Source: Gaiellaceae bacterium (lineage in GTDB: Bacteria; Actinomycetota; Thermoleophilia; Gaiellales; Gaiellaceae). Taken from it: a stretch of DNA of 28,806 nucleotides. How positions within the stretch are numbered: the stretch's first letter is position 1; every line of letters starts with the position of its first letter. The stretch covers positions 1-28,806 of the forward strand of contig DASVEU010000117.1 in NCBI GenBank assembly GCA_036380395.1. The letters are read 5' to 3'. This document shows, piece after piece, positions 9,753-28,806 of this stretch. Under the pieces are notes generated by a model, which saw nothing but the letters and a program-made list of their open reading frames with translations, was not told the origin of the DNA and searched no databases. Made by a program: the position numbers and the translations under genes.

Positions 9753-9758
9753 ACCCTA
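9753..9758 (-). promoter_or_regulatory. Candidate internal -10 hexamer TAGGGT for a leaderless MOSC transcript
   Basis: TANNNT 7 nt upstream of GTG 9745; it overlaps the hydantoinase B stop codon. Confidence 0.4.
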
Positions 9759-12975: not shown

Positions 12976-13647
12976 GTGGCAATCCGTGGGCTCCTCTTCG
13001 ACTTCGACGGCCTGCTGGTCGACACCGAGACTCCCTCCCGGCTCGTCTGGGAGGAGCTCTACCGCGAGCACGGTCACGAGTTGCCGCAGGATCGGTGGGC
13101 CACCCTCATCGGAACGATCGGCGCGCCTTTCGATCCGCTCGGACATCTCGAGGAGCTCGTCGGCAGGCGCCTCGACGAGCAGGCGCTGACCACACGTCGC
13201 CGCGCCCGCGAGTACGAGCTCACGGATCTCGAAGAGCTCAGACCTGGCGTGGAAGAGTATTTCGCCGAAGCCGAGCGGCTCGGCCTGCGCACCGCGGTGG
13301 TGAGCAGCAGCGACGACGACTGGATCGCGCGTCATCTCGGCCGGCTCGGTCACCTCGAAGGCCTCGACACGATCGTGGCCGCAAACGGCGACACGGCGCG
13401 GGCGAAACCTCGACCCGATCTCTACCTCGAGGCGCTCGACCGTCTCGAGCTCGAGCCGCACGAGGCTATCGCCTTCGAGGACTCACCGAATGGCGTCACC
13501 GCCGCGAAAGCAGCCGGGCTCGTCTGCGTGGCTGTGCCGAACCCGATGACGGCGACGCTCGCGCTCGACGACGCCGACCTCGTGCTCGAATCGCTTGCAG
13601 ACGTCCCCCTGCGCGGGTTGCTCGAACGGTTCCGATCGGCGCGATGA
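12976..13647 (+). CDS. HAD superfamily hydrolase, subfamily IA (phosphatase)
   Basis: Motif I FDFDGLLVDTE, motif II VVSSS, motif III KPRPDLY, motif IV AFEDSPNGVTAAKAAG. Confidence 0.93.
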   Translation: MAIRGLLFDFDGLLVDTETPSRLVWEELYREHGHELPQDRWATLIGTIGAPFDPLGHLEELVGRRLDEQALTTRRRAREYELTDLEELRPGVEEYFAEAERLGLRTAVVSSSDDDWIARHLGRLGHLEGLDTIVAANGDTARAKPRPDLYLEALDRLELEPHEAIAFEDSPNGVTAAKAAGLVCVAVPNPMTATLALDDADLVLESLADVPLRGLLERFRSAR

Positions 13648-13988
13648 AGGCATTGACGCAGATGAAGTGCGTCGCCTGTCGCAAGGACGCCCCGACCTTG
13701 GCCGATGCCGAGATCGCAGAACTGCATCCCCAGATTCCTGACTGGGAAATCGTCGAGCTCGACGGGATCAAACGTCTGAGACGCGTCTTTGCGGTCGATG
13801 ATTTTGCGCAGGCACTGGAACTCACGAACGAAGTCGCCGAGCTTGCGGAGCAGGAGCAACATCACCCGGCGCTGCTGACCGAGTGGGGCAGGACGACGGT
13901 CACGTGGTGGACGCACAAGATCAAAGGCCTGCATCGCAACGACTTCATCATGGCGGCGAAGACGGACCAGCTGTACCTGCGCTACTAG
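13644..13988 (+). CDS. phhB: Pterin-4-alpha-carbinolamine dehydratase (4a-hydroxytetrahydrobiopterin dehydratase)
   Basis: MKALTQMKCVAC (PhhB-like N-terminus), catalytic EQEQHHP, EWGRTTVTWWTHKIKGLHRNDFIMAAKTD. ATGA overlap with the HAD gene; I moved the start to 13644. Confidence 0.93.
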   Translation: MKALTQMKCVACRKDAPTLADAEIAELHPQIPDWEIVELDGIKRLRRVFAVDDFAQALELTNEVAELAEQEQHHPALLTEWGRTTVTWWTHKIKGLHRNDFIMAAKTDQLYLRY

Positions 13989-14890
13989 ACCCCGTTCTTG
14001 CGGAGCTCCGCGACGATCGCGGGCACGATCTCGTGGAGGTCGCCGATCACGGCCCAGTCTGCGCGCGCGACGATCGGTGCGCTCTGGTCCTTGTTGATCA
14101 CGAGGATCCGCTTGGCGGCCTTGCACCCGACGATGTGCTGGATTGCGCCGCTGATGCCGCAGGCGATGTAGAGGTCGGGCGCGATCCGCGCACCCGTCTG
14201 TCCGACCTGATCGGAGTGCGGTCTCCAGCCGAGGTTGGTGACGACGCGCGAGCCGCCGACGGCACCCCCGAGGAGGTTCGCGAGCTCCTCGAGCAGTTCG
14301 AACCCCTCTTTGCTGCCGACGCCGCGGCCGCCGCCGACAACGACGCGCGCGGTGTCGAGCCGAACGGTGCCGGCGGTCGGTTGCTCGCGGCCTGACACCC
14401 GCACGACGAAGTGTTCGTCGGCGAGGGACGGGGTGAACTCCTCCGTCGTCGTAGTGACGCCGGCGGGCTGCGCCACGACGGCATGCGCGGCGACCGTGAG
14501 CAGCTTCGGCGTTCCGGTGAGCCGGGCCTCTTCCAGCAGGCTGCCGCCCCAGCGCTGGCGCGTGAGCTGCAAGGCGTCGCCGTCGGTTGCAGCCGCGACG
14601 ACATTCGCGGCCAGTGGGACGCCCAGCCGCGCCGCGACGTGGGCCAGCACCTCGTGCCCGCGGTCGGTGCCCGGGGCGACCACGACCTCCGGCTCGAGCT
14701 CGACGATCGCCTGCGCCCACGCCTCGGGCGCGTAGTCCCCAAGTCGCGGGTGCACAACGCGGCGCGCGCGTGCGGTGTAGCCGTCGACGTCCGTCTCCTC
14801 GAAGATCAGCGCCTCGACGTCACCGAGTTCGCGTGCGAATGTCAGCGCTTCGAGCGAGACCGGGTCGCCGTCGACGAGGCAGAGGATCAT
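13985..14890 (-). CDS. etfA: Electron transfer flavoprotein alpha subunit
   Basis: ARVVVGGGRGVG, LGGAVGGSRVV, QVGQTG..IAPDLYIACGISGAIQH, INKD..API, GDLHEIVP. Start ATG 14890 overlaps the etfB stop (ATGA). Confidence 0.93.
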   Translation of the reverse strand: MILCLVDGDPVSLEALTFARELGDVEALIFEETDVDGYTARARRVVHPRLGDYAPEAWAQAIVELEPEVVVAPGTDRGHEVLAHVAARLGVPLAANVVAAATDGDALQLTRQRWGGSLLEEARLTGTPKLLTVAAHAVVAQPAGVTTTTEEFTPSLADEHFVVRVSGREQPTAGTVRLDTARVVVGGGRGVGSKEGFELLEELANLLGGAVGGSRVVTNLGWRPHSDQVGQTGARIAPDLYIACGISGAIQHIVGCKAAKRILVINKDQSAPIVARADWAVIGDLHEIVPAIVAELRKNGV

Positions 14891-15648
14891 GACGTCACCA
14901 CTAGCCCGAGCTCGCGCAGCACCTCCACGACGCGCGGCGCCGCGGCGGCGCCGGCGAGGATCTCGGCGTGCGTCTCCTGCTCCGGCGGGACGACGAGCCT
15001 GATCGTCTCCAGCGCGCTCGCGCGCGGCTGTGGCTCGATCCGCGCGATCGGCGTCTTCTTCGCACGCAGCCGCCCGGGCAGCGACGCGTAGCGCGGCAGA
15101 TTGATTCCTTCCTTCACCGTGACGACCGCCGGCAGCGGCAGCTCGAAGATCTCCCAGCCGCCGCCTGCCTCGCGCCGCGCTGTCAGCTTCCTGTCCTCGA
15201 TCGCGATGCCCTTGATGCCGGTGACGCACGGGAGCCCCAGCGCATGAGCGACGCGAACGCCCACCTGGTAGTCGCCGGTGTCCGCCGCCTCGTTGCCGAA
15301 CAGCAGCACGTCGAACAGTTCGGGTTGCGCGCTAATCGCGTCTGCGAGTGCAGCGGCCGTCGCCTCAGCGTTCCAGTCACTCCCGTCGGTCTCGAGCAGC
15401 ACGGCGTTGTCCACGCCCATCGCCATGGCGTTCTGTAGCTGTTCGGCGGCGTCGGGCGGTCCCAGGGTCAGCACCGTCGTCGACCCCCCGTGCTTCCCGA
15501 CGATGCGCAGCGCTTCCTCGACGGCGCACTCCTCGTGCGGCGAGATCGTGAAGCCGAGCAGGCTCGTGTCGATCGCCTGCGCGTCGCCCGTGAGCGTGAT
15601 GCGTGCCCCCGTCTCGGGAACGCGCTTCACGCACACGATGACGTTCAA
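14887..15648 (-). CDS. etfB: Electron transfer flavoprotein beta subunit
   Basis: NVIVCVKRVP, ISPHEECAVEEALRI, VLTLGP, AMAMGVDNAVL, LPLPAVVTVKEGINLPRYASLPGRLRAKK. TTG start 15648 overlaps the upstream TGA (TTGA). Confidence 0.92.
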   Translation of the reverse strand: MNVIVCVKRVPETGARITLTGDAQAIDTSLLGFTISPHEECAVEEALRIVGKHGGSTTVLTLGPPDAAEQLQNAMAMGVDNAVLLETDGSDWNAEATAAALADAISAQPELFDVLLFGNEAADTGDYQVGVRVAHALGLPCVTGIKGIAIEDRKLTARREAGGGWEIFELPLPAVVTVKEGINLPRYASLPGRLRAKKTPIARIEPQPRASALETIRLVVPPEQETHAEILAGAAAAPRVVEVLRELGLVVTS

Positions 15649-18167
15649 CTCCGAACCCGAGTGTTCTCTGGATCGAAGAGCGGGCGGCTGCCCTTGACCG
15701 CGACGCTGACGGGATAGCGGTCGCCCATGTATTGGACCAGGAGCTTGTTGCCCTCCTCCGCATGCTCGGGCGGCAGGTATGCGAGCAGCACGTGCTTGCC
15801 CACGGAGGGCCCCGAGCCCGCGCTGGTCACGTAAGAGCCTCGTCCTTTGCTGTCGGCGATCCGCGCGCCGTCCGCCGTGAGGATCGGCTCGCGCCCGAGC
15901 ATGTAGCGCTTCTTTCCGTTCGAGGGCGAGGTGTTGTCGTCGACGGTGAGCGTCGAGAGAATCGCCGCGGGCTCCTCGTTCCGGTGGCGGACGTGCGCGT
16001 CCTTGCCGATGAAGTCGGCATCCTTCACCTTCGGCCGCTGCATGTCGGCCTCGACGACGTTGTATTCCGTCTCCAGTTCCGCGCCGTACAACCGGTAGCC
16101 CTTTTCGATCCGGCCGGTCGTGCCGTAGACGCCGATCCCTGACGGGACGACGCCGAACGGCTGTCCCGCCTCTCGGATCGTGTCCCACAGCGCGGCGCCT
16201 TGCTCCATCGGGGCGTACAGCTCCCAGCCGAGCTCGCCGACGTACGAGATGCGCGACGCGAGGGTACGTACTGGCCCGATGTCGATCCAGCGGCAGCGCA
16301 AGAACGGAAAGCCCTCGTGTGAGACGTCGGCGCTCGTGGTTGCTTCCAGGATGTCGCGCGCGCGCGGCCCCCAGAGGCCGAGCGTGCACCATGCGGAGGT
16401 CACGTCGTCGAGCGCGGCGGAGCCGTCCGCGGGCAGCTGGTCCTCGAACCACTTGCGGTCGCGCGGACCGTCCAGGCCGCCGGTGACGACCCGGAAGAAG
16501 TTGTCGCCGAGACGCATGATCGTGAGGTCGGCCTTGAAGCCACCGTGCTGGTCGAGAATCGACGTGTAGACGACTCGGCCGACCGCGACGTCCATCTCCG
16601 CAAGCGCCAGGCGCTGCAAGTGTTCAAGCGCTCCGGAGCCGACGATGTCGAAGACGGCGAAGGCCGAGATGTCGATCATCGCCGCACGGTCGCGCATCGC
16701 AAGATGCTCGGCGTTGATGATCGGCGACCACCAGCGCGATTCCCACTCCGCCTCGCGAGGCATCACGCGGTCGCCGTACTCCTCGAGCAGCGGCTCGTTC
16801 GACGCGTACCACCACGGACGCTCCCAGCCGGCGGTCTCGTAGAACACCGCGCTCAGCTCGCGCTCGCGCGCGTAGAACGGGCTCAACCGCACCTCGCGGT
16901 TCGACAGCCACTGCTCCATCGGATGAACGATCCCGTAGGTGCGGTTGTAGCCCTCCGAGGAGCGTGCGTCGACGTGGCGCTTCGTGCGCTGATGCGGGTA
17001 GAAGCGCGCCACGTCCGCGGTATGCAGATCTGTCTCCGGCGCGCCTTCCACGGCCCATTCGGCGACGGCCTTCGCGATCCCGGGTGCCTCCTTGATCCAG
17101 ATCGCGGCGACGGACCACAGGTTCTTGACCTCCGTCTCTCCCAGCAGGGGCATGCCGTCGGGAGTGAGCGACAGCAGCCCGTTGATCGCGTGCCGGATGC
17201 CCGCTCCCTCGACGGTGAGGATCTCCGGGAAGAGCTCGAGTGCCTGCTCGAGCTGCGGATCGAAGTCCTCGGACGTGAACGGCAGCTCGGTCGGCGACAG
17301 CGCGGACTCCTCGATCGATGGGATCTGGTCGGGCTCCAGCAGAATCGCGCGGTGCGCGTACGAGCCGACCTCCATGTCGCTTCCGTTCTGGCGCTCGTAC
17401 ATGTTCGTGTCCACGTCGCGCACGATCGGGAAGGAGATCTCGCCGGGCGTCTCTTCGAAGAGCGGGATCGGTCCCACGCTGATCATCTGGTGCACAGCCG
17501 GCGTCAGCGGGATCGTCGCGCCCGCCATGCGCGCGATGCGCGGGCTCCAGATCCCGCACGCGACGAACACGTACTCGGCGTCGATCGAGCCTTTGTCGGT
17601 GTGGACGCGCCGCACACGGTTGTTCTCGACGTCGATACCGGTGACCTCGGTGCTGGCGAACACGCTCGCACCGCGTTCCTGCGCGTACTCGCGCATCAGC
17701 GTGCCGGCGCGCAACGGGTCGACGACGGAAACGCCCGGCGTGTAGAAGCCGCCGAGAATGACGTCCGTGTTGAGGAACGGCACCTTCTTGAGCACCTGCG
17801 CCGGCGTCAGCAGCTCGCACCCCTCCTCGCCCCAGGAGAGCGCCGACGACATCCGCCGGTTCAGCTCCTCCATCCGCTCCTTCGTCCGGGCGACCTCGAC
17901 GCCGCCGCTGATCGTGGCGAGCCCGAGCTCGATGTACTGGCGGGCGCTCTCTTTCGTGAGCGTCGTCATCTCCTTCGAGTGGTCGACAGGGAAGATGAAG
18001 TTCGACGCGTGACCCGTCGAGCCGCCTGGGTTGGGCAGGGGACCCTGCTCGAGCAAGACCAGATCCGTCCAGCCGAGCCGCGAGAGGTGGTACGCGATGC
18101 TGTTGCCGACGATGCCGGCGCCGACCACTACGGCCTGCGCGGATGACGGTAGAGGGATAGTGCTCAC
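15645..18167 (-). CDS. Dimethylglycine/sarcosine dehydrogenase-like flavoprotein (FAD oxidase domain plus GcvT-like THF-binding domain)
   Basis: VVVGAGIVG (FAD), GPLPNPGGSTGHASNF (covalent-FAD His position as in dimethylglycine oxidase), AVHQM, INGLLSLTPDGMPLLG, FYETAGWERPWWY, C-terminal RISYVGELGWELY and RIEKGYRLYG. 840 aa, coupled to etfBA. Confidence 0.88.
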   Translation of the reverse strand: MSTIPLPSSAQAVVVGAGIVGNSIAYHLSRLGWTDLVLLEQGPLPNPGGSTGHASNFIFPVDHSKEMTTLTKESARQYIELGLATISGGVEVARTKERMEELNRRMSSALSWGEEGCELLTPAQVLKKVPFLNTDVILGGFYTPGVSVVDPLRAGTLMREYAQERGASVFASTEVTGIDVENNRVRRVHTDKGSIDAEYVFVACGIWSPRIARMAGATIPLTPAVHQMISVGPIPLFEETPGEISFPIVRDVDTNMYERQNGSDMEVGSYAHRAILLEPDQIPSIEESALSPTELPFTSEDFDPQLEQALELFPEILTVEGAGIRHAINGLLSLTPDGMPLLGETEVKNLWSVAAIWIKEAPGIAKAVAEWAVEGAPETDLHTADVARFYPHQRTKRHVDARSSEGYNRTYGIVHPMEQWLSNREVRLSPFYARERELSAVFYETAGWERPWWYASNEPLLEEYGDRVMPREAEWESRWWSPIINAEHLAMRDRAAMIDISAFAVFDIVGSGALEHLQRLALAEMDVAVGRVVYTSILDQHGGFKADLTIMRLGDNFFRVVTGGLDGPRDRKWFEDQLPADGSAALDDVTSAWCTLGLWGPRARDILEATTSADVSHEGFPFLRCRWIDIGPVRTLASRISYVGELGWELYAPMEQGAALWDTIREAGQPFGVVPSGIGVYGTTGRIEKGYRLYGAELETEYNVVEADMQRPKVKDADFIGKDAHVRHRNEEPAAILSTLTVDDNTSPSNGKKRYMLGREPILTADGARIADSKGRGSYVTSAGSGPSVGKHVLLAYLPPEHAEEGNKLLVQYMGDRYPVSVAVKGSRPLFDPENTRVRS

Positions 18168-18850
18168 GCGCTCGTCAGCACTCGCCGCATGACCTCTTCG
18201 AAGTCGAGCACGTGCCGGCGCATCGTCGCCTCGGCGCGGTCGGCGTCTCCGTCACGAATTGCCTCCAAGAGCTCGCGATGGCCCAACACCGCCTCCTCCA
18301 GCTCCGGGGCGCGATCGAGCGCGAGGTACCAGATCCGCAGCGCCAGGACGTAGTACTCCTCGAGTGTGGCCTCGAGGAAGGGGTTGTGGGCACAGCTGTA
18401 CACCTGACGGTGGATCCGCTCGTCCAGGGCCATCAGCTCGCGCGCGTCCAGCTCGCTCTGGCCTCCCAACTCGCCGAGGAGGGTCTCCAACGCGTTGCGG
18501 TCTTCGTCGGTCGCCCGCTCGGCGGCGAGGCGCGCTACGTGGCTTTCCAGAGCCGATCGCACCTCAGCGAGACTGGCCAGATCGCGGATCTCCACGCTCG
18601 TGACGAACATGCCCCGGCGGGGGTAGACCTCGACCAATCGCTCCTGCGAGAGGCGACGTAGGGCCTCGCGGGTCGGCGTGCGCCCGATCCCGAGTCGGTC
18701 CATCAACCCGCGCTCGTCGATCACCGCCCCGGGCCGCAGCTCGACCGAAACGATCATCTCCCGGATCGCGTGGTACGCCCGGTCGGCGAGCGAGGCCGTC
18801 GCCCCGCTCGAGGCCTGGAGGACGCTGACCTGCCCCTTCGCCTCTGCCAC
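18164..18850 (-). CDS. GntR family transcriptional regulator (FCD domain)
   Basis: HTH LADRAYHAIREMI...LRPG...LGIGRTPTREALRRL..E.LVEVYPRRGMFV; FCD motifs LDERIH and HRELLEAIRDGDADRAEATMRRHV. Confidence 0.94.
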   Translation of the reverse strand: MAEAKGQVSVLQASSGATASLADRAYHAIREMIVSVELRPGAVIDERGLMDRLGIGRTPTREALRRLSQERLVEVYPRRGMFVTSVEIRDLASLAEVRSALESHVARLAAERATDEDRNALETLLGELGGQSELDARELMALDERIHRQVYSCAHNPFLEATLEEYYVLALRIWYLALDRAPELEEAVLGHRELLEAIRDGDADRAEATMRRHVLDFEEVMRRVLTSA

Positions 18851-18851
18851 G

Positions 18852-18872
18852 GAGATACATTACTCATATCTC
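18852..18872. promoter_or_regulatory. Inverted repeat GAGATA-N9-TATCTC; candidate GntR operator overlapping divergent -10 boxes
   Basis: AT-rich dyad directly upstream of the gntR GTG. It contains TAATGT (minus strand, 6 nt from the start) and TACATT (plus strand). Confidence 0.5.
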
Positions 18873-18914
18873 AGTTCGTTCCCATCCGCACCAGAACGGG
18901 ACGTAGAGGACGCC

Positions 18915-19664
18915 GTGACGGGCTCTTCTGAAATCGAGGACGACGTCGTAGCCGAGGGCGTCCGGGTCCTCTCGGCCGCGCGCGACCAGGCTCTGCCGCT
19001 TCGTCTGCTTGGCGGCGTCGCTGTCCGCCTCAGGAGTCGGAACGAATTGCCTGCGGCGCTGCAACGGACGTACGGCGACCTCGACTTCGTTACCGCCCGG
19101 CGTGCCTCGGGTCCTGCGCAGAAGTTCTTCCGCGACCTCGGTTACTCGCCGCAGGTTTCATTCAACGCACTCAACTCGCGGGAACGCCTGCTCTTCTTCG
19201 ACGAGGATCACGGCCGCCAGGTCGACGTCTTCGTGGGCTCGTTCCGCATGTGCCACGAGATTCCGCTCGAAGGACGCATGGAGCTGGACGAGACGTCGAT
19301 CCCACTCGCCGAGCTCCTGCTGACGAAGCTGCAGGTAATTCAGCTGAACGAGAAGGACGTGCGCGATGCGATCGCGGTCCTGCATGACCGTGAGCTCGGA
19401 GACGAGGACGGCGACACGGTCAACGCGGGACGGATTGCGCAACTCTGCTGTGAGGACTGGGGCCTCTGGCGGACAATCACCCGCAACCTCGAAGCGTGCC
19501 GTAAGCAGGCGGGTGCCTACGGCGAGGATCTCGCCGACGTTGCCACCCGCTTCTCGGAGCTCGAGGAGCGGATCGAGGCCGAGCCGAAGTCACGCGCCTG
19601 GCGCCTGCGCGCGAAGATCGGCGAACGCAAGCGCTGGTACGACCTTCCGGAGGAACGCGCATGA
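18915..19664 (+). CDS. Uncharacterised nucleotidyltransferase-fold protein (Pol-beta superfamily)
   Basis: LLGGVAV (GG.A), RTYGDLDFV (DxD), a third Asp in VDVF and helical LAELLLTKL. GAGG SD before GTG 18915; I moved the start from 18678. Confidence 0.7.
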   Translation: MTGSSEIEDDVVAEGVRVLSAARDQALPLRLLGGVAVRLRSRNELPAALQRTYGDLDFVTARRASGPAQKFFRDLGYSPQVSFNALNSRERLLFFDEDHGRQVDVFVGSFRMCHEIPLEGRMELDETSIPLAELLLTKLQVIQLNEKDVRDAIAVLHDRELGDEDGDTVNAGRIAQLCCEDWGLWRTITRNLEACRKQAGAYGEDLADVATRFSELEERIEAEPKSRAWRLRAKIGERKRWYDLPEERA

Positions 19665-20602
19665 GGCTCTTCTTCGCCACTGACATCCACGGGTCCGAGA
19701 CGTGCTGGCGGAAGTTCCTGAACAGCGGGCTGCATTACGAGGCGGACGTAATCGTCCTCGGAGGCGACATGACCGGGAAGGCGCTCGTTCCCGTCGTCGA
19801 CGAAGGCGACGGCCGCTGGCACGCCACCCTGCTCGAAAACCGCGAAGAGCTCGTCGGCGAAGACGAGGTCGTGGCCTTCGAGGAAGCCGTGATTCGGCGC
19901 GGTTACTACCCGTTCAGGACCACATCCGAAGAGGTGCGCGAGCTGCAAGACGACGAGGCGCGTTGGCACGGGCTGTTCGAGGACGAGATGCTGAAGACCG
20001 TGGAGCGGTGGATGCAGGTGGCGGATGAGAAGCTTGCCGGCAAAGGCATCCGCTGCTTCGTCTGTCCCGGCAACGATGATCAGCTCAACGTCGACGATGT
20101 CATCCGCGGCGCGAAGAGCGTCGAGCTCGCCGAGGGAGAGGTGGTCGAGATCGGCGGGTACCAGATGGTCTCGAGCGGCTGGGCGAACCGAACACCGTGG
20201 GATACCTATCGAGAGGAGGATGAGGAGGACCTCGAGATCCGGATCCGGAAGATCACGGATCAGGTGACGGCCCCTCCCGAGCGGACGATCTTCAGTTTGC
20301 ACTGTCCTCCGTACAAGTCCGGGCTCGACGACGCTCCACAACTGACGAAGGACATGCATCTGAAGGAGGCGGGACGCTCCACTGTCCCGGTCGGCTCGAC
20401 CGCGGTGCGCGCAGCGATCGAAGAGCATCAGCCCTGCCTCGGCCTCCACGGTCACATCCACGAGGCGAAGGGCACCACGCGCATCGGCCGAACTCTCTGC
20501 ATCAACCCGGGGAGCTCGTACGAGCAAGGCCAGCTGCTCGGTGCCGTCGTCGATCTCGACGGCAAGAAGAAGGTCAAGCGGTTCATCCTCACGAGCGGAT
20601 AG
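19661..20602 (+). CDS. Calcineurin-like metallophosphoesterase (Icc-related)
   Basis: ATDIHGS (DxH), GGDMTGK (GD), PGNDD (GNxx variant), HCPP, HGHIHE (GHxH), INPGS. ATGA overlap with the nucleotidyltransferase. Confidence 0.9.
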   Translation: MRLFFATDIHGSETCWRKFLNSGLHYEADVIVLGGDMTGKALVPVVDEGDGRWHATLLENREELVGEDEVVAFEEAVIRRGYYPFRTTSEEVRELQDDEARWHGLFEDEMLKTVERWMQVADEKLAGKGIRCFVCPGNDDQLNVDDVIRGAKSVELAEGEVVEIGGYQMVSSGWANRTPWDTYREEDEEDLEIRIRKITDQVTAPPERTIFSLHCPPYKSGLDDAPQLTKDMHLKEAGRSTVPVGSTAVRAAIEEHQPCLGLHGHIHEAKGTTRIGRTLCINPGSSYEQGQLLGAVVDLDGKKKVKRFILTSG

Positions 20603-20613
20603 GAGGAACACGA

Positions 20614-22230
20614 ATGGCAACGATGTCCGGGCCAGCTCAAGCAGGAGAGCAAGCCCTTTTCGTCCGCAAGGCGACCGGCCTCGTCAAAGGCTGGTCGGTC
20701 CGCGACGCGTTCATCTACTCGGCGATCTCGATCAACTTCGTCACGCTGGGCCTGTACGCGTTCTCCTTCGCGAACTTCATTCCCAGGGGCAGCCTGTTCT
20801 GGGCGGCGATCCTCTCGGGTGCGTACCTGATCTTCCAGGCGATCACCTACGCCTCGCTGATTGCGGCGATGCCGCGCGCCGGCGGCGACTACGTCTGGAT
20901 CAGCCGGACGCTCGGCGGCGGGATCGGGTTCGTGCTGGCCGCTTGCGGATGGTGGTTCATCCTCTGGCACTGGGTCCCGATCTACGCGAACATCCTCAAC
21001 ATCATGGTGCTGGGCCCGCTCTCGGCCATCGTCGGCTGGGATCGCGGAGTCACGTTCTGGTCGAGCCACAACGGCGTTTTCACCTCGTCGATGATCGTCG
21101 CGCTGATGGCGTCGGTGCTGGTTGCGGCCGGGGTCCGGGCGTACGCACGCTTCCAGAAGATCTGCTTCTACGGCGGCTGCGTGGGCCTCCTGATCATGTT
21201 CATCCTCCTTGTCGTACATTCGAAGAGCGACTTCATCTCCGCGTTCAACGCGCAGGCGCACGACGTCTACCACACCTCCGGGGACGCGTACGCGGCGACG
21301 GCGAAGGCGGGCAGCGCGGGGACCTACGCATCACTCGGGTCATTCCACTTCGGCCAGATCGTGCTGTTGATTCCGATCCTCTTCTTCTTCAATCTCTGGT
21401 CGAACTGGGGTGCGACTCTGTACGGCGAGGTCCGGGGAGCGTCGGACTTCCGCAAGAACATCTACGCGATGGGCGGGGCTCTGCTCGCGACGACCGCGGT
21501 CGCGGCGATCTTCTTCGGCCTGTTTGCACACACGTTCGGCTGGCAGTGGTATCACGCGTCGAACGCCGCCTACTGGGCCGGTACCGGGCCGCTCGGCGTC
21601 TTTCCCTACCCAGGAACGCTGGTTGCCTTCTTCACCGGGAGCGCTGCGCTCCAGTTCATCATCGTCGGCATCCTGAGCCTCTGGTTCTTCGGCTGGGTCG
21701 GGACGGTCTTCCTGTCGTCGACCCGCGTCGTCTTCGCTGCGGCGTTCGACCGCGTCCTGCCCGAGGCCGCGGCGAAGGTCAGTGCCAAGGGCGTCCCGTA
21801 CGGTGCGCTGGCGTTGATGCTGATCCCGTCGATTCCGATCAGCTACTTCTACGCGTACAACACGAAGTTCAGCAGTTGGACGTTCGACGCAACGTTGGTG
21901 ATCGCGATCACGTTCCTCGGCTCGGCGGTCTCGGCGGCGATCTTCCCGTGGCGCCGGCCGGACATCTACAACGCCTCGCCGATCGCGAAGTACAAGGTGG
22001 CCGGCATTCCGCTGATCACCGCGGCGGCGACGGCCTTCACGGCGATCCTCGTGTTCGCCCTCTACCACTGGTTCAAGGACTCCGTCTACGGCGTCAACTT
22101 CCGGAACTCGGAGTACTACATGGCGGTGCTCTATGGCGTTGCGATCGCGGTCTACGTCGTGTCGTGGCTCTACCGACGCTCGCAAGGGTTGAGTCTGAAG
22201 ATGGTCTATGGAGAGATACCGGCTGAGTAG
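20614..22230 (+). CDS. APC superfamily amino acid/amine permease
   Basis: Strong SD AGGAGG; about 12 hydrophobic segments; LFVRKATGLVK, AMPRAGGDYVWISRTLG, YGEV, SSTRVVFAAAFDRVLP. Confidence 0.9.
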   Translation: MATMSGPAQAGEQALFVRKATGLVKGWSVRDAFIYSAISINFVTLGLYAFSFANFIPRGSLFWAAILSGAYLIFQAITYASLIAAMPRAGGDYVWISRTLGGGIGFVLAACGWWFILWHWVPIYANILNIMVLGPLSAIVGWDRGVTFWSSHNGVFTSSMIVALMASVLVAAGVRAYARFQKICFYGGCVGLLIMFILLVVHSKSDFISAFNAQAHDVYHTSGDAYAATAKAGSAGTYASLGSFHFGQIVLLIPILFFFNLWSNWGATLYGEVRGASDFRKNIYAMGGALLATTAVAAIFFGLFAHTFGWQWYHASNAAYWAGTGPLGVFPYPGTLVAFFTGSAALQFIIVGILSLWFFGWVGTVFLSSTRVVFAAAFDRVLPEAAAKVSAKGVPYGALALMLIPSIPISYFYAYNTKFSSWTFDATLVIAITFLGSAVSAAIFPWRRPDIYNASPIAKYKVAGIPLITAAATAFTAILVFALYHWFKDSVYGVNFRNSEYYMAVLYGVAIAVYVVSWLYRRSQGLSLKMVYGEIPAE

Positions 22231-22243
22231 CCGGCGAAACCTG

Positions 22244-22279
22244 GGGAGCGCCTCGGGCGAACAGCTGCGAGGCGCTTCC
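22244..22279 (+). terminator. 12-bp GC-rich hairpin after the permease (terminator/attenuator-like)
   Basis: GGGAGCGCCTCG-N12-CGAGGCGCTTCC with one G-U pair. There is no U-tract. Confidence 0.4.
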
Positions 22280-22353
22280 TCGTCTGTCAGAGCTCGAGGC
22301 CGAACGACGACGAGCGATGGCGCCCCACGACCGTGCGATAGGCTCGCCGCCCC

Positions 22354-23526
22354 GTGAGCGTAGAAGTCGAGACAGTCCGAACGGTCGAAGTGCCGACTCG
22401 GATCGTCCATGGTGCCGGCGCGATCGCGCGCGTGGGCGAGCTCGTCGCGGAGCTGGGAGTCAGTCGGCCGCTTCTGGTCACGGACAAAGGAGTCGTCGCG
22501 GCCGGTCTCGCCGATGCGACGCTTGCGCACCTCGAGAACGCGGTCCTCTTCGACGAGGTCCGCGCAAACCCGGACATCGAGCTCGTCGGGCGCGCCCGGA
22601 CCGCGTACGTCGAAGCCGGCTGCGACGGCCTCATCGCCCTCGGCGGCGGGAGCTCGATGGACACGGCGAAGTCGGTTGGCGTCGAGGTCGTCCACGGCGG
22701 CTCGATTGTCGAGTACGAGTACGGCGGGACGCCGATCACGACGCGCATCCCGCCGCTTGTCGCGGTGCCCACGACAGCGGGAACCGGGAGCGAGGCCACG
22801 CTCTGGGCCGTGATCACGGATCCGGAGCGAAAGATCAAGTTCAACGTCGGCGGCACGCCGTTGATCGGCGCGCACGTCGCGCTCGTCGACCCCGAGCTGA
22901 TGCTCGGCCTTCCGCCGGCGATCACCGCGGCGACCGGGATGGATGCACTCTCGCACGCGATCGAGTGCTACACGTGTGACTACCACCAACCCTTCAACGA
23001 CGCCGTTGCGCTCCTGGCGACCGAGCTCGTCGCACGCTCGCTGCGCGTCGCCTACGAAGACGGCGGCGATCTCGAGGCGCGCACGGACATGGCGCACGCC
23101 GCGACACTCGGCGGACTTGCCTACGGGACCGAGAGCGCGGGCGCAGCCCATGCCATGAGCCAGTCGGCAGGCGGCGTGCACGAGTGTCCGCACGGCGCGC
23201 TCACGGCACGAGTGCTCGGACCTGTGTGCGAGTACAACGCGCCCGCGGACCCGGAGCGCTACGCCCGCATCGCGCAGGGTCTCGGGGTCGACGTCCACGG
23301 ACTGTCTCCACTCGAAGCCGCGCTTGCCGGGGTCGATGAGGTCTACCGGCTCACTGACGACGTCGGCATTCCGAGCATGGCAGAGCTCGGCTTCTCGGAG
23401 GAAGAGATTCCGATGCTTGCCAGAATCGCCTACGAGGATCCGCAGACGATCGGAAACCCACGCGAGGTCGACGCCACCGCCTACGAAGAGATCTATCGCA
23501 ACTCCTTCGCGAGAGGGAAACGCTGA
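22354..23526 (+). CDS. gbsB: Iron-containing (type III) alcohol dehydrogenase, GbsB-type choline dehydrogenase
   Basis: General Fe-ADH motifs (GGGSSMDTAK, PTTAGTGSE, GMDALSHAIECY). It also has segments I recognise from B. subtilis GbsB: RIPPL, KFN.GG.PLI.AH, YG[ST]ESAGAAHAMSQ and DPQT.GNPR. Confidence 0.85.
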   Translation: MSVEVETVRTVEVPTRIVHGAGAIARVGELVAELGVSRPLLVTDKGVVAAGLADATLAHLENAVLFDEVRANPDIELVGRARTAYVEAGCDGLIALGGGSSMDTAKSVGVEVVHGGSIVEYEYGGTPITTRIPPLVAVPTTAGTGSEATLWAVITDPERKIKFNVGGTPLIGAHVALVDPELMLGLPPAITAATGMDALSHAIECYTCDYHQPFNDAVALLATELVARSLRVAYEDGGDLEARTDMAHAATLGGLAYGTESAGAAHAMSQSAGGVHECPHGALTARVLGPVCEYNAPADPERYARIAQGLGVDVHGLSPLEAALAGVDEVYRLTDDVGIPSMAELGFSEEEIPMLARIAYEDPQTIGNPREVDATAYEEIYRNSFARGKR

Positions 23527-24980
23527 GCACGCGCACGAGCGACTACTCGATGTACGTCGGCGGCTCGTGGGTCGAAAGCGAGTCCGGTGAACGGATGGAG
23601 GCGACCAGTCCGGCAACAGGTGAGACGATCGGGTCCGTCCCCGAGGCGACGCGCGACGACGCTCGGCGGGCGATCGCGGCGGCCAACGCGGCCGCGCGCG
23701 AGTGGGCGGCCCGCTCGGCTTTCGAGCGCGCGGCGGCAATGGAGCGAGTAGCCGAGATCATCGAGGAGCGCCGTGATGACCTTGCGCGCACGCTCACGCT
23801 CGACCAGGGCAAGCCCCTGCGCGCCGAGTCCTACGGCGAGGTGGATGAGCTCATCGAGTACTGGCGAATGGCCGCAGGCGATGCGCGACGGCTCGAAGGT
23901 CTCATGCCGCCGTCGGTGGACGCGTCGAAGCGGGTGCTCGCCTACCGCGTTCCGCGCGGGGTCGTCGGCGTGATCACGCCGTGGAACTGGCCGTACACGA
24001 TGGCTGCGGAGGTAGTCGCTCCGGCGCTCGCCTCGGGAAACACCGTCGTCTGGGGGCCGGCGACTTCGACGTCGGTGTGCTCGGTCAAGCTGGCCGAGTG
24101 CGTCGTGGACGCCGAGCTTCCCGCCGGGGTCTTCAACCTGGTGACCGGCCCCGGCTCGGTCGTCGGAGACGAGATTGCAACAAACGCTGGCACGCACGCA
24201 ATCGGCTTCGTCGGCTCGGTCGCCACGGGGTACCGCGTCGCCGAGCGCGCCGCGGGCAAGGCGCTTCTGCTCGAGATGGGAGGGAACGGTCCCCTGGTCG
24301 TCCTCGAGGACGCGGACCTGGACGGCGCCGTCGAGGCGACGCTCGCGGCTGCGTTCCTGTGCGCCGGACAGAGCTGCACCGCCGGCGAGCGCTTCCTCGT
24401 GCACGAGGACGTCCACGACGAGTACCTCGACAAGCTGACGGCAGCGGTCGCGAAAACGATCCGACTGGGCGACCCCTTTGCGGACGAGACGACGATGGGC
24501 CCGCTCAACAACGAGCGCACCGCCGCGAAGATGGACAACCACGTCGGCGACGCGGTCGAGCGCGGCGCGGTGCTCGTCGCCGGCGGCGCGCGCGCGCGCG
24601 AGTTTCCCACGGACCTGTACTACGAGGCGACCGTCCTCGACCGTGTGAACGACGAGATGGATGTCGCCAAAGACGAGACGTTCGGGCCGGTCGTTCCCAT
24701 TTCGACGATCCGGAGCGAGGACGAGGCACTCGCGATCATCGACTCGTCCCCGTACGGGCTGCTGGCCGCCGTCTTCACGAACGACCTTCGCCGCGGCCTG
24801 CGGTTCGCCGAGGCTGCGCGGACCGGCTGGGTGAACATCAACGAGTCGACGAACTACTGGGAGAGCCATCTCCCGTTCGGAGGGCGGGCCGGGTCGCAAA
24901 GCGGGATCGGCCGGGTCGGCGGACGCTTCTCGATGGAGACGTTCACGGAGCTCAAGACCGTAGTCGTGAATCTGGGCTAA
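23523..24980 (+). CDS. NAD(P)-dependent aldehyde dehydrogenase; betaine aldehyde dehydrogenase by context
   Basis: ITPWNWP, GFVGSVATG, LEMGGNG (general-base Glu), AGQSCTA (catalytic Cys), ETFGP, PFGG. The first ATG is 23550; an in-frame CTG at 23523 overlaps the gbsB TGA and has a GAGGG SD. Confidence 0.9.
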   Translation: MSTRTSDYSMYVGGSWVESESGERMEATSPATGETIGSVPEATRDDARRAIAAANAAAREWAARSAFERAAAMERVAEIIEERRDDLARTLTLDQGKPLRAESYGEVDELIEYWRMAAGDARRLEGLMPPSVDASKRVLAYRVPRGVVGVITPWNWPYTMAAEVVAPALASGNTVVWGPATSTSVCSVKLAECVVDAELPAGVFNLVTGPGSVVGDEIATNAGTHAIGFVGSVATGYRVAERAAGKALLLEMGGNGPLVVLEDADLDGAVEATLAAAFLCAGQSCTAGERFLVHEDVHDEYLDKLTAAVAKTIRLGDPFADETTMGPLNNERTAAKMDNHVGDAVERGAVLVAGGARAREFPTDLYYEATVLDRVNDEMDVAKDETFGPVVPISTIRSEDEALAIIDSSPYGLLAAVFTNDLRRGLRFAEAARTGWVNINESTNYWESHLPFGGRAGSQSGIGRVGGRFSMETFTELKTVVVNLG

Positions 24981-24999
24981 GGAAGAGGAGGCAGCTGCA

Positions 25000-26211
25000 G
25001 TGACGAAGATCGTCGAGCACCCCGAGGTCTTGCTGTACACGCGGGTCCGGAAGTCGCCGTACTTTTACGCGTCGCGCCGTCACGGCGTGCACATGTACAG
25101 CTTCTACAACCACATGTACCACCCTCGTCACTACGGCGACCCGGTGGCGGAGTACTGGGAACTTCTGAACGGTGTCACGCTCTGGGACGTCGGGGTCGAG
25201 CGGCAGGTGGAGATCACGGGGCCCGACGCGTTCACGCTGGCGAACATGCTCGTCCCGCGCGACCTGAACAAGTGTGCGGTCGGGCAGTGCAAGTACGTTT
25301 TCATCACTGCTCCCGACGGCGGCATCATCAACGACCCGATCCTGCTGCGGCTGGAAGAGAACCACTTCTGGATCTCCGTCGCGGACAGCGATGTGCTCCT
25401 GTGGGCGATGGGGGTCGCCTACAATTCGGGGCTCGACGTCAAGATCGGCGAGCCGGATGTCGGCCCGATGCAGATCCAGGGCCCGAAGTCGAGGGACGTG
25501 CTCGTCGACCTCCTTGGCGACAGCGTGCTCGAGATTCCGTACTACTTCCTGAAGGATTACGAGCTCGAGGGCATGCACTTGACGGTCTCGCGCACGGGCT
25601 ACACCTCCGAGATCGGGTTCGAGATCTACTGCCGCGATGCGGCCAACAACGGCATCAAGCTCTGGGACCTGGTGCTCGAGGCGGGCAAGCCGCACGGCCT
25701 CGCCGTTATCGGGCCCTGCCACATCCGCCGCATCGAGGGCGGCATCCTGGCGTACGGCGCGGACATGTGGCTGGATACGAACCCCTACGAGGTCGACCTG
25801 GGCTACGAGTGGATGGTCGACCTCGAGCAGGAGGCGGACTTCGTGGGGAAGGACGCGCTGCGGAAGATCAAGGAGAAAGGAATCTCGCGAAAGCTCGTGG
25901 GCGTTGAGATCGGCGGCGCCAAGCTCGGCTCCTACAACGACGGCTCGATGATGGACTTCTTCCCTGTGTCCGCCGATGGGAAGAACATCGGCAAGGTGAC
26001 GTCGGCATGCTTCTCGCCGCGCCTCGAGAAGAACATCGGCTACGCGATGGTTCCGATCGAGTACGCCGAGCTGGGGACGGAGCTCGAGGTCGAGAGGCCG
26101 GAAGAGAAGACCTCGGCCGTTGTCGTCCGCAGGCCGTTCATCGATCCTGAGAAGGAGATTCCGAAGCAGGACCTCGCGGCCGCGGGGGCCAGGGACGAAT
26201 CGAGCAGCTAA
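25000..26211 (+). CDS. GcvT-family THF-dependent methyltransferase/demethylase, DmdA-like
   Basis: AGGAGG SD. RVRKSPY, YNHMYHP, LWDVGVERQVEITGPDA, NDPILLRL, ISVADSD, IQGPKS, SRTGY..EIGFEIY, RRIEGG...YGAD and SACFSPRL follow the DmdA pattern as I recall it (YNHM..P, WDV..ERQVEI.G.D, ADSD, YEVY). Confidence 0.8.
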   Translation: MTKIVEHPEVLLYTRVRKSPYFYASRRHGVHMYSFYNHMYHPRHYGDPVAEYWELLNGVTLWDVGVERQVEITGPDAFTLANMLVPRDLNKCAVGQCKYVFITAPDGGIINDPILLRLEENHFWISVADSDVLLWAMGVAYNSGLDVKIGEPDVGPMQIQGPKSRDVLVDLLGDSVLEIPYYFLKDYELEGMHLTVSRTGYTSEIGFEIYCRDAANNGIKLWDLVLEAGKPHGLAVIGPCHIRRIEGGILAYGADMWLDTNPYEVDLGYEWMVDLEQEADFVGKDALRKIKEKGISRKLVGVEIGGAKLGSYNDGSMMDFFPVSADGKNIGKVTSACFSPRLEKNIGYAMVPIEYAELGTELEVERPEEKTSAVVVRRPFIDPEKEIPKQDLAAAGARDESSS

Positions 26212-27058
26212 CGGAACCAATGCCGGTCGGGACGCGCTCGCCGCGCTACTGAGGCGTCCTCGCTACGAGGTGTTCCCCGTCGAGGGGATCGCCGACGACG
26301 TGGTCACGCACGTCCCGACCGAGATCAAGGTGGCGGTCACCTCGTCGCCGGCACGGGGGATCGAAGCGACGCTGCGACTGTGCGAGGAGCTCACGTCGGC
26401 CCAGTTCCAGGTTGCGCCGCACCTCGCAGCTCGCCTCGTCAGGGACGAGGAGCATCTGCAAGACATCCTTCAGCGGCTCTTCGCGATCGGCGTCCGCGAC
26501 GTCTTCGCGATCGCCGGCGACGCGGACCTGCCTGCAGGGAAGTTCGACGGCGCGACGGCGCTGCTCGTGGCGATGGCCGAGCTCGGGCACGGCCTGGAAC
26601 AGGTTGGGATCTCCGGCTACCCGGAGAGCCATCCCTTCATCAGCGACGAGACCACGATTCAGGTGATGTTCGACAAGGAGCCCTTCGCGACGTACATCGT
26701 CAGCCAGCTCTGCCTCGACGCCGGTGTGATCGCGTGGTGGATCGGAGCCGTCAGAGCCCGCGGCGTCCGGCTCCCCATCCACATCGGGATTCCCGGGCCG
26801 ATTGCGAGCACGAAGCTCCTTCGCATCGCGACGAGGATCGGAGTCGGTGAGTCGACGCGATTTCTGCGCCGGCACGGCGGGCTGCTCGCACGCCTGTTCC
26901 TGCGCGGCCGCTACGGCCCCGGCTCGCTGATCGAGCAGTTGGCGCCGCAGCTCGCCGACCCAGCGTCCGCAATCGGCGGCTTCCATGTCTACACGTTCAA
27001 TGAACTGGCGACGACGGAACGCTGGCGGCGCGAGGCGCTTCGCCGCCTCGAGTCCTGA
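26120..27058 (+). CDS. metF: Methylenetetrahydrofolate reductase-like flavoprotein (MetF family)
   Basis: YEVFP (catalytic Glu), PHLAAR, AIAGD (Asp), GYPESHP, IVSQL, IGIPGP, FHVYTFN. The start is ambiguous (TTG 26120, ACG 26195, CTG 26249 or GTG 26270). Confidence 0.8.
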   Translation: MSSAGRSSILRRRFRSRTSRPRGPGTNRAANGTNAGRDALAALLRRPRYEVFPVEGIADDVVTHVPTEIKVAVTSSPARGIEATLRLCEELTSAQFQVAPHLAARLVRDEEHLQDILQRLFAIGVRDVFAIAGDADLPAGKFDGATALLVAMAELGHGLEQVGISGYPESHPFISDETTIQVMFDKEPFATYIVSQLCLDAGVIAWWIGAVRARGVRLPIHIGIPGPIASTKLLRIATRIGVGESTRFLRRHGGLLARLFLRGRYGPGSLIEQLAPQLADPASAIGGFHVYTFNELATTERWRREALRRLES

Positions 27059-28556: not shown

Positions 28557-28806
28557 AACGGGTTCGTCCAGGCCTTCCGGCCGTAGGAGTCGACAAGCTC
28601 GAGCCGTCCGTAGAGGCTGCCGGCCGGCCATTCGAGGCGTGCGCACGTGATCTCTTCGTCGTCTGCCTCGGACAGGATCTCGCCGGCGTACCGGTAGCCG
28701 AAACGGCCGGCGCTGACGGAGGAGCCCCGGCGGGGGCTGGTGCACAGCGTGACTCTCTGACAGGGACTGCACAGCACCTCGACGCTCCCCTTCTCGAGGT
28801 GGAGCT
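28547..28806 (-). CDS. C-terminus of a probable PHP-domain / CehA-McbA family metallohydrolase (runs off the right edge)
   Basis: The frame is open to the window edge and ends in YGRLELVDSYGRKAWTNPLWT, matching the Y.R.E..D..G..AW[ST]NP.W tail of that family. The catalytic domain lies outside the window. Confidence 0.5.
   Translation of the reverse strand, partial: LHLEKGSVEVLCSPCQRVTLCTSPRRGSSVSAGRFGYRYAGEILSEADDEEITCARLEWPAGSLYGRLELVDSYGRKAWTNPLWT

Follow-up and report, generated by a model that had tools for sequence, protein, structure and literature searches.

The 28,806-nucleotide stretch of DNA analyzed here in its entirety (hereafter, the window) is contig DASVEU010000117.1 (C117) of a Gaiellaceae-type soil metagenome-assembled genome (MAG; GenBank GCA_036380395.1). 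It encompasses a genuine, modular cluster for the catabolism of choline, glycine betaine and dimethylglycine, with two divergent arms and a GntR-family regulator that contains an FCD effector domain. One of the proteins encoded in this cluster belongs to the GcvT family and resembles DmdA, the demethylase of dimethylsulfoniopropionate (DMSP), but falls outside the DmdA clade; the next gene encodes a divergent homolog of the methylenetetrahydrofolate reductase (MTHFR) MetF. Judging from sequence and genomic context, these two proteins probably perform a tetrahydrofolate (THF)-dependent demethylation of betaine to dimethylglycine that would involve neither an oxygenase nor a corrinoid protein. 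We favor this assignment because the two genes and their neighborhoods are conserved together, the DmdA-like protein is placed outside DmdA proper, the nearest relative of the MetF-like protein with a solved structure is a methyl-THF oxidase, and neither GbcA nor BHMT nor MttB was found in five genomes that carry the pair.

The MAG consists of 1.98 Mb in 264 contigs (57% complete, 1.35% contaminated, G+C content of 64-72%), and the close relatives of the window proteins come from Gaiellaceae and Gaiellales soil MAGs. Gene families were assigned using Pfam and NCBIfam scans. The 403-amino-acid DmdA-like protein contains both domains of the GcvT fold at scores above the gathering thresholds (PF01571, 143.2 bits; PF08669, 67.9 bits). 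DmdA (EC 2.1.1.269) is its nearest characterized relative, with an E-value of 6.1e-71 and 243 bits for the Pelagibacter ubique structure (PDB 3TFH), compared to 2.1e-47 and 165 bits for GcvT. Besides the GCV_T and GCV_T_C fold, the two proteins share the N-terminal YNHM and WDV..ERQVEI.GPDA blocks, and the chemistry would be expected to be alike, with an onium compound giving up a methyl group that reaches N5 of THF intact. On the DmdA equivalog model (NF009133, cut-off of 410 bits), the window protein scores 344.6 bits and its orthologs from Rubrobacter marinus, a Steroidobacteraceae MAG and an alphaproteobacterial MAG score 335-347 bits, all below the cut-off. Scores on this model form a continuum, from 677 to approximately 270 bits, across 301 genomes of the class around the alphaproteobacterial carrier, 21 of which exceed the cut-off.

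We constructed a maximum likelihood tree of 71 family members (quick IQ-TREE search, with somewhat optimistic support values). The 18 proteins that score at least 457 bits on the DmdA model form a single clade (SH-aLRT 100), and the window protein belongs to a separate 19-member clade (SH-aLRT 99) that consists of sequences from Thermoleophilia and Rubrobacter as well as a few from Proteobacteria. The window protein is 34-40% identical to true DmdAs. Its clade is characterized by the motifs RTGYT.E.G.EIY and CHI[RK]RIE and a two-residue insertion ahead of the YEWMVD block, whereas the counterparts in true DmdAs read ARSG[WY]SKQGGFE and NLIERIE; the blocks that differ between the clades lie near the active site or the substrate pocket. 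The genomic contexts differ as well: dmdBCD genes are missing around the window gene, and its neighbors are genes for the metabolism of choline, betaine and dimethylglycine. By these sequence criteria, the window protein is not a DmdA. A link to DMSP demethylation is not apparent in the related loci either: no acyl-CoA ligase or dehydrogenase cluster is found among the neighbors retained in at least 6 of the 53 loci of at least 15 kb, and enoyl-CoA hydratase is found in only 6.

A tryptophan of DmdA (W171; Trp197 in 3TFH) has been proposed to be specific for DMSP (PMC7487153). We considered this residue as a marker and abandoned it: the tyrosine that occupies this position in the window clade is also found in many proteins above the cut-off of the DmdA model. 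Non-DmdA relatives are found elsewhere in the family. In SAR11 bacteria, DmdA-like aminomethyltransferases of unknown substrate are encoded beside betaine transporter genes (Sun et al. 2011, PMC3160333). Two of these, SAR11_1265 and SAR11_1303, are linked to opuA and sarcosine oxidase genes, in a manner reminiscent of the window, but belong to another clade of the family; a likely SAR11 paralog among our loci (L109) is 52% identical to the window protein and groups elsewhere in the tree, and no MetF-like neighbor was seen in that locus with the window queries. Similarly, in the paralogous clades of Alphaproteobacteria and of genomes of the same order, no MetF-like or choline genes were found nearby using actinobacterial queries, which are possibly too distant; either the association with metF and choline genes is specific to the clade of the window protein, or the queries missed it for this reason. 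Genomes of one actinobacterial family (f26) encode three, four or more DmdA-like paralogs that are 45-54% identical to the window protein and often occur as tandem pairs; many of these matches were flagged with one in-frame stop.

The MetF-like protein is only distantly related to canonical MetF (45.5 bits on TIGR00676, compared to the cut-off of 293.7). The closest solved structure is that of S6MTHFR (7XG9, E-value 1.8e-36) from Sphingobium lignivorans SYK-6, an enzyme that oxidizes the 5-methyl-THF produced by the GcvT-family demethylases LigM and DesA (Yu et al. 2025, PMC11868366). The catalytic residues of S6MTHFR (Glu21, Asp107 and Gln175) are matched by E, D and Q of the window protein when the two are aligned pairwise with HMMER (7XG9). 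The same study defined a 'type 4' group of MTHFRs as the partners of THF-dependent demethylases; the partners in its survey are LigM, DesA, CmuAB and Dmt, and DmdA and betaine are not mentioned (PMC11868366). Like the type 4 enzymes, the window protein is genomically coupled to a predicted THF-dependent demethylase. By analogy with LigM/DesA and S6MTHFR (7XG9/7XLF), where a GcvT-family demethylase makes 5-methyl-THF and an adjacent MetF homolog oxidizes it to methylene-THF, the window pair may work in the same order, except that the demethylase is DmdA-like and the methyl group would come from an N-methyl onium compound instead of an aryl methyl ether. Thus, the MetF-like protein has the same genomic design as type 4 but is not a demonstrated member, and the direction of its reaction is predicted from this analogy. 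The biosynthetic direction in the same MAG would be served by a separate YitJ-type bifunctional homocysteine methyltransferase/MTHFR.

The cluster consists of the following genes and sequence elements, given with their coordinates in the window, strand and the matches on which the annotation is based:

13985..14890, minus strand: EtfA, electron transfer flavoprotein (ETF) alpha subunit (PF00766, 1.7e-33, and PF01012)
14887..15648, minus strand: EtfB, ETF beta subunit (PF01012, 1.6e-34)
15645..18167, minus strand: 840-amino-acid DAO-FAO_M-GCV_T-GCV_T_C flavoprotein of the dimethylglycine oxidase/dehydrogenase family (Pfam architecture; 1PJ5, E-value 4.6e-160)
18164..18850, minus strand: GntR regulator with an FCD effector domain, FadR subfamily (PF00392, 5.6e-18; PF07729, 1.3e-27)
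18852..18872, no strand: AT-rich dyad GAGATA-N9-TATCTC, candidate operator (read from the sequence)
18915..19664, plus strand: 249-amino-acid nucleotidyltransferase (NTase) of the Pol-beta superfamily (PF14907, 19.3 bits, below cut-off; Foldseek)
19661..20602, plus strand: 313-amino-acid calcineurin-like metallophosphoesterase, GNDD motif variant (weak Pfam Metallophos match; Foldseek)
20614..22230, plus strand: 538-amino-acid APC-superfamily permease (PF13520, 1.4e-13)
22243..22279, plus strand: GC-rich hairpin after the permease stop codon, candidate terminator or attenuator (13-pair stem in the predicted fold)
22354..23526, plus strand: GbsB-type iron-containing alcohol dehydrogenase, NAD-dependent choline dehydrogenase (NF053866, 610.1 bits; Fe-ADH Pfam domains)
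23550..24980, plus strand: aldehyde dehydrogenase (ALDH), betaine aldehyde dehydrogenase by context (PF00171, 8.4e-151)
25000..26211, plus strand: 403-amino-acid DmdA-like GcvT-family protein (GCV_T and GCV_T_C; NF009133, 344.6 bits)
26120(?)..27058, plus strand: MetF-like protein of the MTHFR family, start uncertain (PF02219, 40 bits)

All eleven genes listed in a preliminary description of this DNA, as well as their order, were recovered with Pfam and NCBIfam, and the choline/betaine/dimethylglycine assignment of the locus made there is borne out by the families and the neighborhoods. One start codon had to be amended, and another is uncertain. The NTase gene starts at GTG 18915 rather than at the first start of its open reading frame (ORF), 18678. 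For the MetF-like gene, no canonical start other than TTG 26120 precedes the conserved N-terminal block; with this start, the gene would overlap the DmdA-like gene by 92 nucleotides. The junctions of the left arm, previously described as chained by short overlaps, can be read directly in the sequence: the start of the flavoprotein gene overlaps the stop of gntR (GTGA), the start of etfB overlaps the stop of the flavoprotein gene (TTGA), and the start of etfA overlaps the stop of etfB (ATGA). On the right arm, the NTase and phosphoesterase genes are joined by an ATGA overlap. The permease gene and gbsB are separated by a gap of 124 nucleotides that contains the GC-rich hairpin, so that the right arm may be split at this gap into two transcription units; the hairpin (22243-22279) lacks a T-tract, was not flagged in a terminator scan, and the z-score of the whole region (-0.96) is not significant.

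To assess the conservation of the genomic context, we compared 82 related loci, 80 from contigs of one genome per species and two from metagenome assemblies, that were queried with the window proteins and a few extra queries; a gene within 10 kb of the DmdA-like gene was counted as a neighbor. A MetF-like gene is such a neighbor in 65 of these loci. Loci that lack a partner are often short contigs, and hence a separate count was made on the 53 loci of at least 15 kb, by clustering all ORFs after filtering on codon-position G+C (the related loci have 68% G+C); MetF-like proteins are encoded in 52 of these 53 loci. Among the 82 loci, the neighbors further include a DAO-GCV_T flavoprotein (39 under one label, typified by L002, and 12 under the label of the window protein; the two labels represent a single orthologous group with 67% identity), EtfB (35), EtfA (32), an Fe-S/CCG protein that is probably an ETF-oxidizing enzyme (30), ALDH (36), the OpuAC betaine/choline-binding protein (18) and a GntR/FCD regulator (37). 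GbsB is encoded in 20 loci, in all 20 of which it is followed by ALDH. A GMC oxidoreductase is found in 34 loci, with about 70% or greater identity to the BetA-like query in approximately nine and 30-39% in the rest. The clustering of all ORFs added the OpuA ATPase, a second APC permease, an IclR regulator, a proline-racemase-family protein and others. Soil Thermoleophilia and Rubrobacteria commonly encode the DmdA-like/MetF-like pair, which also occurs in some Proteobacteria; the carriers include a cultured strain, Rubrobacter marinus SCSIO 52915, that has an orthologous cluster (L052).

The modules of the cluster are freely reshuffled. One related locus (L011) has the same right arm as the window, with a formate-THF ligase gene inserted after the regulator; in the nearest relatives (L007-L009), an OpuA transporter takes the place of the NTase-phosphoesterase-permease trio; and in the loci from Solirubrobacterales and Thermoleophilaceae, a GMC oxidoreductase takes the place of GbsB. 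A 1.6-Mb metagenome contig (L139) shares the EtfA-EtfB-flavoprotein-GntR arm and the trio with the window, and has a GlpD-like gene as well, but encodes a class I/II aminotransferase where the window has gbsB-ALDH-DmdA-like-MetF-like, which suggests that the trio and the flavoprotein arm are an older unit with a different substrate. Thus, of the synteny anticipated in the preliminary description, the pairing of the DmdA-like and MetF-like genes and their association with betaine genes are retained, whereas neither the inclusion of the trio nor the island as a whole is fixed.

Three routes from betaine to dimethylglycine are established, namely, the Rieske oxygenase GbcAB/BmoAB, betaine-homocysteine methyltransferase (BHMT) and the corrinoid-dependent MtgB. 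The reaction proposed here would occupy the same position, upstream of dimethylglycine and sarcosine dehydrogenases, but would proceed without O2, homocysteine or cobalamin. As noted previously, the window contains no BetA/GMC, Rieske, S-methyltransferase or MttB gene. The search for a canonical enzyme elsewhere in the carrier genomes gave the same outcome. Neither GbcA (NF058607) nor BHMT (NF005718) nor MttB (PF06253) was detected above the cut-off in the source MAG or in four to five other carriers, including two MAGs that are complete chromosomes and the complete genome of R. marinus SCSIO 52915; the best scores across these genomes are 150 for GbcA (cut-off 670) and 197 for BHMT (cut-off 338), with no match for MttB. 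In the source MAG, the top Rieske protein reaches those 150 bits on the GbcA model, the one S-methyltransferase is the bifunctional YitJ-type enzyme, and no MttB-family gene is found in the 57% of the genome that is available. A gene for the B component of a glycine/sarcosine/betaine reductase is present in one of five carriers; the incomplete source MAG yielded no glycine/betaine-reductase B gene. Extending the search to a sample of 401 Actinomycetota genomes, we found no GbcA above the cut-off in any of them; the tallies over this sample include one genome flagged as unpublished, and none of the claims made here relies on it. We also asked whether the DmdA-like gene and GbcA are mutually exclusive in this sample; no clean complementarity was observed, with GbcA never above the cut-off, and this line of argument was dropped. 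Given the conserved pairing, the placement in the tree and these absences in carriers, the DmdA-like and MetF-like proteins are the best candidates for the oxygenase-free and corrinoid-free demethylation step that had been postulated for this locus. In open-access full texts, we found no description of a GcvT-type THF-dependent betaine demethylase.

The following route can be proposed for the pathway. GbsB, identified by family, and the ALDH, by context, would oxidize choline to glycine betaine with NAD(P). The DmdA-like protein would then demethylate betaine at its quaternary nitrogen, passing the methyl group intact to N5 of THF and yielding dimethylglycine and 5-methyl-THF, and the MetF-like protein would, as in the LigM/DesA and S6MTHFR system, oxidize 5-methyl-THF to 5,10-methylene-THF for one-carbon (C1) oxidation or assimilation. 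The 840-amino-acid flavoprotein would place the next methyl group onto THF and pass the electrons to EtfAB, with either dimethylglycine or sarcosine as the putative substrate, and the last demethylation would be carried out by paralogs encoded elsewhere in the genome. Neither O2, as a substrate, nor a corrinoid would be required at any step of this scheme. As a probable repressor of both arms, the GntR/FCD protein would act at the AT-rich dyad for as long as no intermediate of the pathway is bound to it.

Betaine is not the only onium compound that could be the methyl donor. It is possible, if rather unlikely, that the DmdA-like protein is a THF methyltransferase for choline, betaine aldehyde, proline betaine, carnitine, gamma-butyrobetaine or DMSP, and that the betaine genes adjoin it since these substrates are related osmolytes; with choline as the donor, the product would be dimethylethanolamine, to be converted to dimethylglycine by GbsB and ALDH. 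DmdA-type chemistry fits onium donors only, and choline and betaine aldehyde are in the pathway as well; moreover, OpuA-type transporters take up several such solutes, genes of the proline racemase family are present in 10 related loci, and Alphaproteobacteria and one actinobacterial family encode many paralogs of unknown substrate, up to four per genome. Against this, many loci encode the DmdA-like protein, the MetF-like protein, DAO-GCV_T and ETF without GbsB, a composition that fits betaine over choline; dmdBCD-type genes are not conserved nearby, and DMSP is unlikely to be a main substrate in soil Thermoleophilia; and the product of the reaction has to feed an enzyme resembling dimethylglycine oxidase. 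Much harder to sustain, and in our judgment very improbable, is the view that the DmdA-like protein is an ordinary GcvT-type partner of the aminomethyl/methylene-THF-forming kind, for instance of a flavoprotein without a folate domain, with MetF acting reductively to provide methyl-THF for methionine synthesis when methylated amines support growth, and the actual betaine enzyme missing from the incomplete MAG. Such a role would be compatible with the lack of most type 4-specific residues in the MetF-like protein, with the RTGYT.E.G.E motif, which is closer to classical GcvT than to DmdA, and with the 57% completeness of the MAG. However, DmdA is by far the nearest characterized relative (243 bits compared to 165 for GcvT), the flavoproteins of the locus already contain GCV_T domains of their own, the separate bifunctional homocysteine methyltransferase/MTHFR is available for biosynthesis, and complete chromosomes of carriers also lack GbcA, BHMT and MttB above the cut-offs.

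Demethylation of betaine thus remains the assignment we prefer, and several observations weigh against it. Quaternary ammonium compounds donate methyl groups less readily than sulfonium compounds do and, to our knowledge, the characterized DmdA has been reported to be unable to use betaine. Claims of absence in the source MAG are weak given its 57% completeness. GbcA-like oxygenases that score 380-417 bits (below the cut-off) occur in nine genomes, six of which have the DmdA-like gene as well. The island is a mosaic in which the modules and their co-occurrence, rather than the architecture as a unit, are conserved: contrary to the unity implied by the preliminary description, OpuA can replace the trio, the gbsB-ALDH-DmdA-like-MetF-like block is missing in L139, and only 3 of 24 genomes of the same genus have the DmdA-like gene. 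Five of the six type 4 signature residues differ in the MetF-like protein (Leu48, Arg78, Phe215, Cys219 and Pro268 are replaced with S, L, I, I and T, respectively, in the pairwise alignment to 7XG9), and only Phe269 is retained; the residue lists are from PMC11868366. Finally, in soil metatranscriptomes, gbsB, ALDH, the MetF-like gene and the left arm are barely covered. Four soil metatranscriptome runs were picked with a stretch of the window that does not include the trio as the query, and yielded contigs of at least 93% identity. The word depth is 5-104 for the trio and 4-94 for the DmdA-like gene, compared to mostly 0-10, with bins up to 24, for gbsB, ALDH, the MetF-like gene and the left arm. 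The trio was not part of the search query, and therefore its coverage is not a selection effect. These contigs were assembled from mixed communities and show only presence in RNA libraries, rather than induction or operon structure, with carry-over of DNA being possible.

The enzymes on both sides of the putative demethylation step are assigned with different levels of precision. GbsB passes the NF053866 equivalog model over its full length (610.1 bits, cut-off 550). The ALDH fails the betaine aldehyde dehydrogenase models (388.3 bits on TIGR01804, cut-off 668.6; 362.3 bits on NF009725, cut-off 593) and is generic by sequence; its predicted role in the oxidation of betaine aldehyde comes from its adjacency to GbsB. 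The 840-amino-acid flavoprotein aligns with the Arthrobacter globiformis dimethylglycine oxidase (1PJ5) over residues 8-839 (E-value 4.6e-160), a better match than the mammalian dimethylglycine dehydrogenase DMGDH, and has the same four-domain architecture; it could be either an oxidase or an ETF-linked dehydrogenase. Linkage to ETF genes is the feature it shares with the mammalian DMGDH/SARDH system, and because its gene is chained to etfBA, the protein is probably an ETF-linked dimethylglycine (or sarcosine) dehydrogenase that yields methylene-THF.

The island accounts for only one of the two oxidative demethylations that follow dimethylglycine formation and so is not self-contained as had been suggested, but the choline/betaine pathway is plausible in the genome as a whole. 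A second DAO-GCV_T paralog, 36% identical to the first, is encoded on contig C142 of the same MAG (L135:3891-8829), upstream of genes for a choline/ethanolamine-kinase-like APH protein and an APC permease. This flavoprotein-kinase-permease threesome recurs in six other loci (L002, L131, L132, L140, L154 and L156). Contig C263 (L136) encodes a SoxA-like protein (Fer2_4, SO_alpha_A3 and GCV_T domains) and a SoxB-like protein beside formate-THF ligase and a glutamate-synthase-domain protein; this set could be a heterotetrameric sarcosine oxidase or part of the methylamine N-methylglutamate pathway.

The first three genes of the right arm comprise a conserved module of their own. The NTase scores 19.3 bits on PF14907 (gathering threshold 31.2), has no sequence match in the PDB and has thousands of unnamed relatives. 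Its predicted structure (pLDDT 88.9) retrieves MenT1, LnuA and ANT(2'')-Ia in Foldseek searches at a probability of 1.0 and TM-scores of 0.4-0.6, and the GG and DxD motifs (G33, G34, D55 and D57) are invariant in 30 homologs; modeling thus places it in an uncharacterized family of the Pol-beta superfamily. The predicted structure of the phosphoesterase (pLDDT 93.2) is most similar to aq_1956 (2YVT, E-value 2e-11) and TT1561, followed by MPPED2, SbcD/Mre11 and LpxH. Its residues of the metal-ligand type (D8, H10, D36, N138, H214, H263 and H265) do not vary, and in motif III, GNDD takes the place of GNH[DE]. The similarity to ANT(2'')-Ia, LnuA, MenT/AbiEii, aq_1956 and TT1561 is at the level of the fold, with catalytic-type residues conserved; membership at the sequence level is lacking, and none of these proteins has a fixed three-gene association with an APC permease.

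This association is the most conspicuous feature of the trio. The NTase is present in 51 of the 401 sampled Actinomycetota genomes and, in 20 sampled loci with NTase identity down to 32%, the phosphoesterase gene adjoins the NTase gene in all 20, and the two are accompanied by an APC permease gene in 19; three further metagenome loci have the same arrangement. About half of the 20 loci contain genes for GbsB/ALDH, DmdA-like/MetF-like, DAO-GCV_T, choline-kinase-like or OpuAC proteins within 9 kb. Collectively, the trio is a real, old and widely conserved uptake-type module that has repeatedly joined methylated-amine catabolism and was recruited here. The choline-kinase-like phosphotransferase and APC permease found at the equivalent position in other loci may, speculatively, represent an alternative solution to the same task. 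A new entry step into choline catabolism had been ascribed to the trio; the trio is conserved, but nothing ties it to choline, phosphocholine or any other named substrate. We find it very doubtful, although somewhat less so than a GcvT-type role for the DmdA-like protein, that two things hold jointly, that is, that the DmdA-like protein with the divergent methyl-THF oxidase constitutes a fourth route of betaine demethylation and that the trio is an uptake-and-activation module for an amino alcohol or ester, acting by nucleotidylylation followed by phosphodiester cleavage in place of a choline-kinase-like enzyme. A different function, which we regard as improbable, is that of a toxin-antitoxin or defense-like pair of the MenT/AbiEii type, or of a regulatory writer and eraser acting by nucleotidylylation of the permease or another protein. 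Structurally, the NTase indeed matches MenT1 toxins best, followed by antibiotic nucleotidyltransferases, and the NTase and phosphoesterase genes are translationally coupled, but the TM-scores to MenT are only 0.4-0.5. Moreover, the presence of an APC permease gene next to the pair in 19 of the 20 loci sampled across the phylum, together with the choline- and betaine-related genes found in half of these loci, is unlike mobile toxin-antitoxin modules.

A GlpD-like FAD-dependent glycerol-3-phosphate dehydrogenase (DAO and DAO_C domains; 26997-28805) is convergent with the right arm, and a GlpD-like gene is also located downstream of the trio in L139 (13579-15117; 63% identical) and in L003. This neighbor is retained in close relatives only and not in more distant loci, and no GpdQ is among the sequence or fold matches of the phosphoesterase; we therefore discarded the possibility that the phosphoesterase is a GpdQ-type glycerophosphocholine diesterase tied to the GlpD-like gene.

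The regulator scores 64.8 bits for the GntR helix-turn-helix and 97.2 bits for the FCD domain, in accord with the FadR/FCD subfamily. The divergent intergenic region is 64 nucleotides long and holds the dyad GAGATA-N9-TATCTC, which, as described previously, can be read directly between the arms. By our estimate, six-base arms of this kind are near the chance expectation, at approximately 0.2 per such region; the AT-rich dyad block is conserved in L007, L008, L009 and L011, all close relatives. In a scan of the region for promoter and terminator consensus sequences, sites were no more numerous than expected by chance, and an Rfam scan of the island detected neither a riboswitch nor any other RNA family.

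Several genes lie beyond the island. Past the ETF arm, the window encodes the A and B subunits of a hydantoinase/oxoprolinase (9756-12958, minus strand), an unannotated 296-amino-acid ORF and a carbon-nitrogen hydrolase (7370-8269). An N-methylhydantoin/creatinine-type route ending in sarcosine would fit the location of these genes next to a sarcosine/dimethylglycine dehydrogenase. Two plus-strand ORFs converge on etfA, one of 297 codons, the last ~95 of which encode a pterin-4a-carbinolamine dehydratase domain (13095-13988), and one for a HAD-family hydrolase (12976-13647); both are probably unrelated to the island. Selenocysteine machinery is encoded approximately 7 kb from the island, with SelA (3382-4656) and SelB (5537-7213) flanking a 341-amino-acid ORF (4590-5615).

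Few osmolytes and carriers of methyl groups in soils and oceans are as abundant as glycine betaine and choline. The lack of GbcA above the cut-off in all 401 sampled Actinomycetota genomes implies that the first demethylation of betaine in these bacteria is unexplained by the Rieske route. The cluster of the cultured R. marinus SCSIO 52915 makes the idea of a folate-dependent betaine demethylase directly testable. If correct, such an enzyme would close this gap without O2 or vitamin B12, and the methyl group would be delivered as 5-methyl-THF, a direct link from the use of betaine to methionine synthesis and C1 oxidation. The interpretation of 'dmdA-like' genes in terrestrial metagenomes would change as well.

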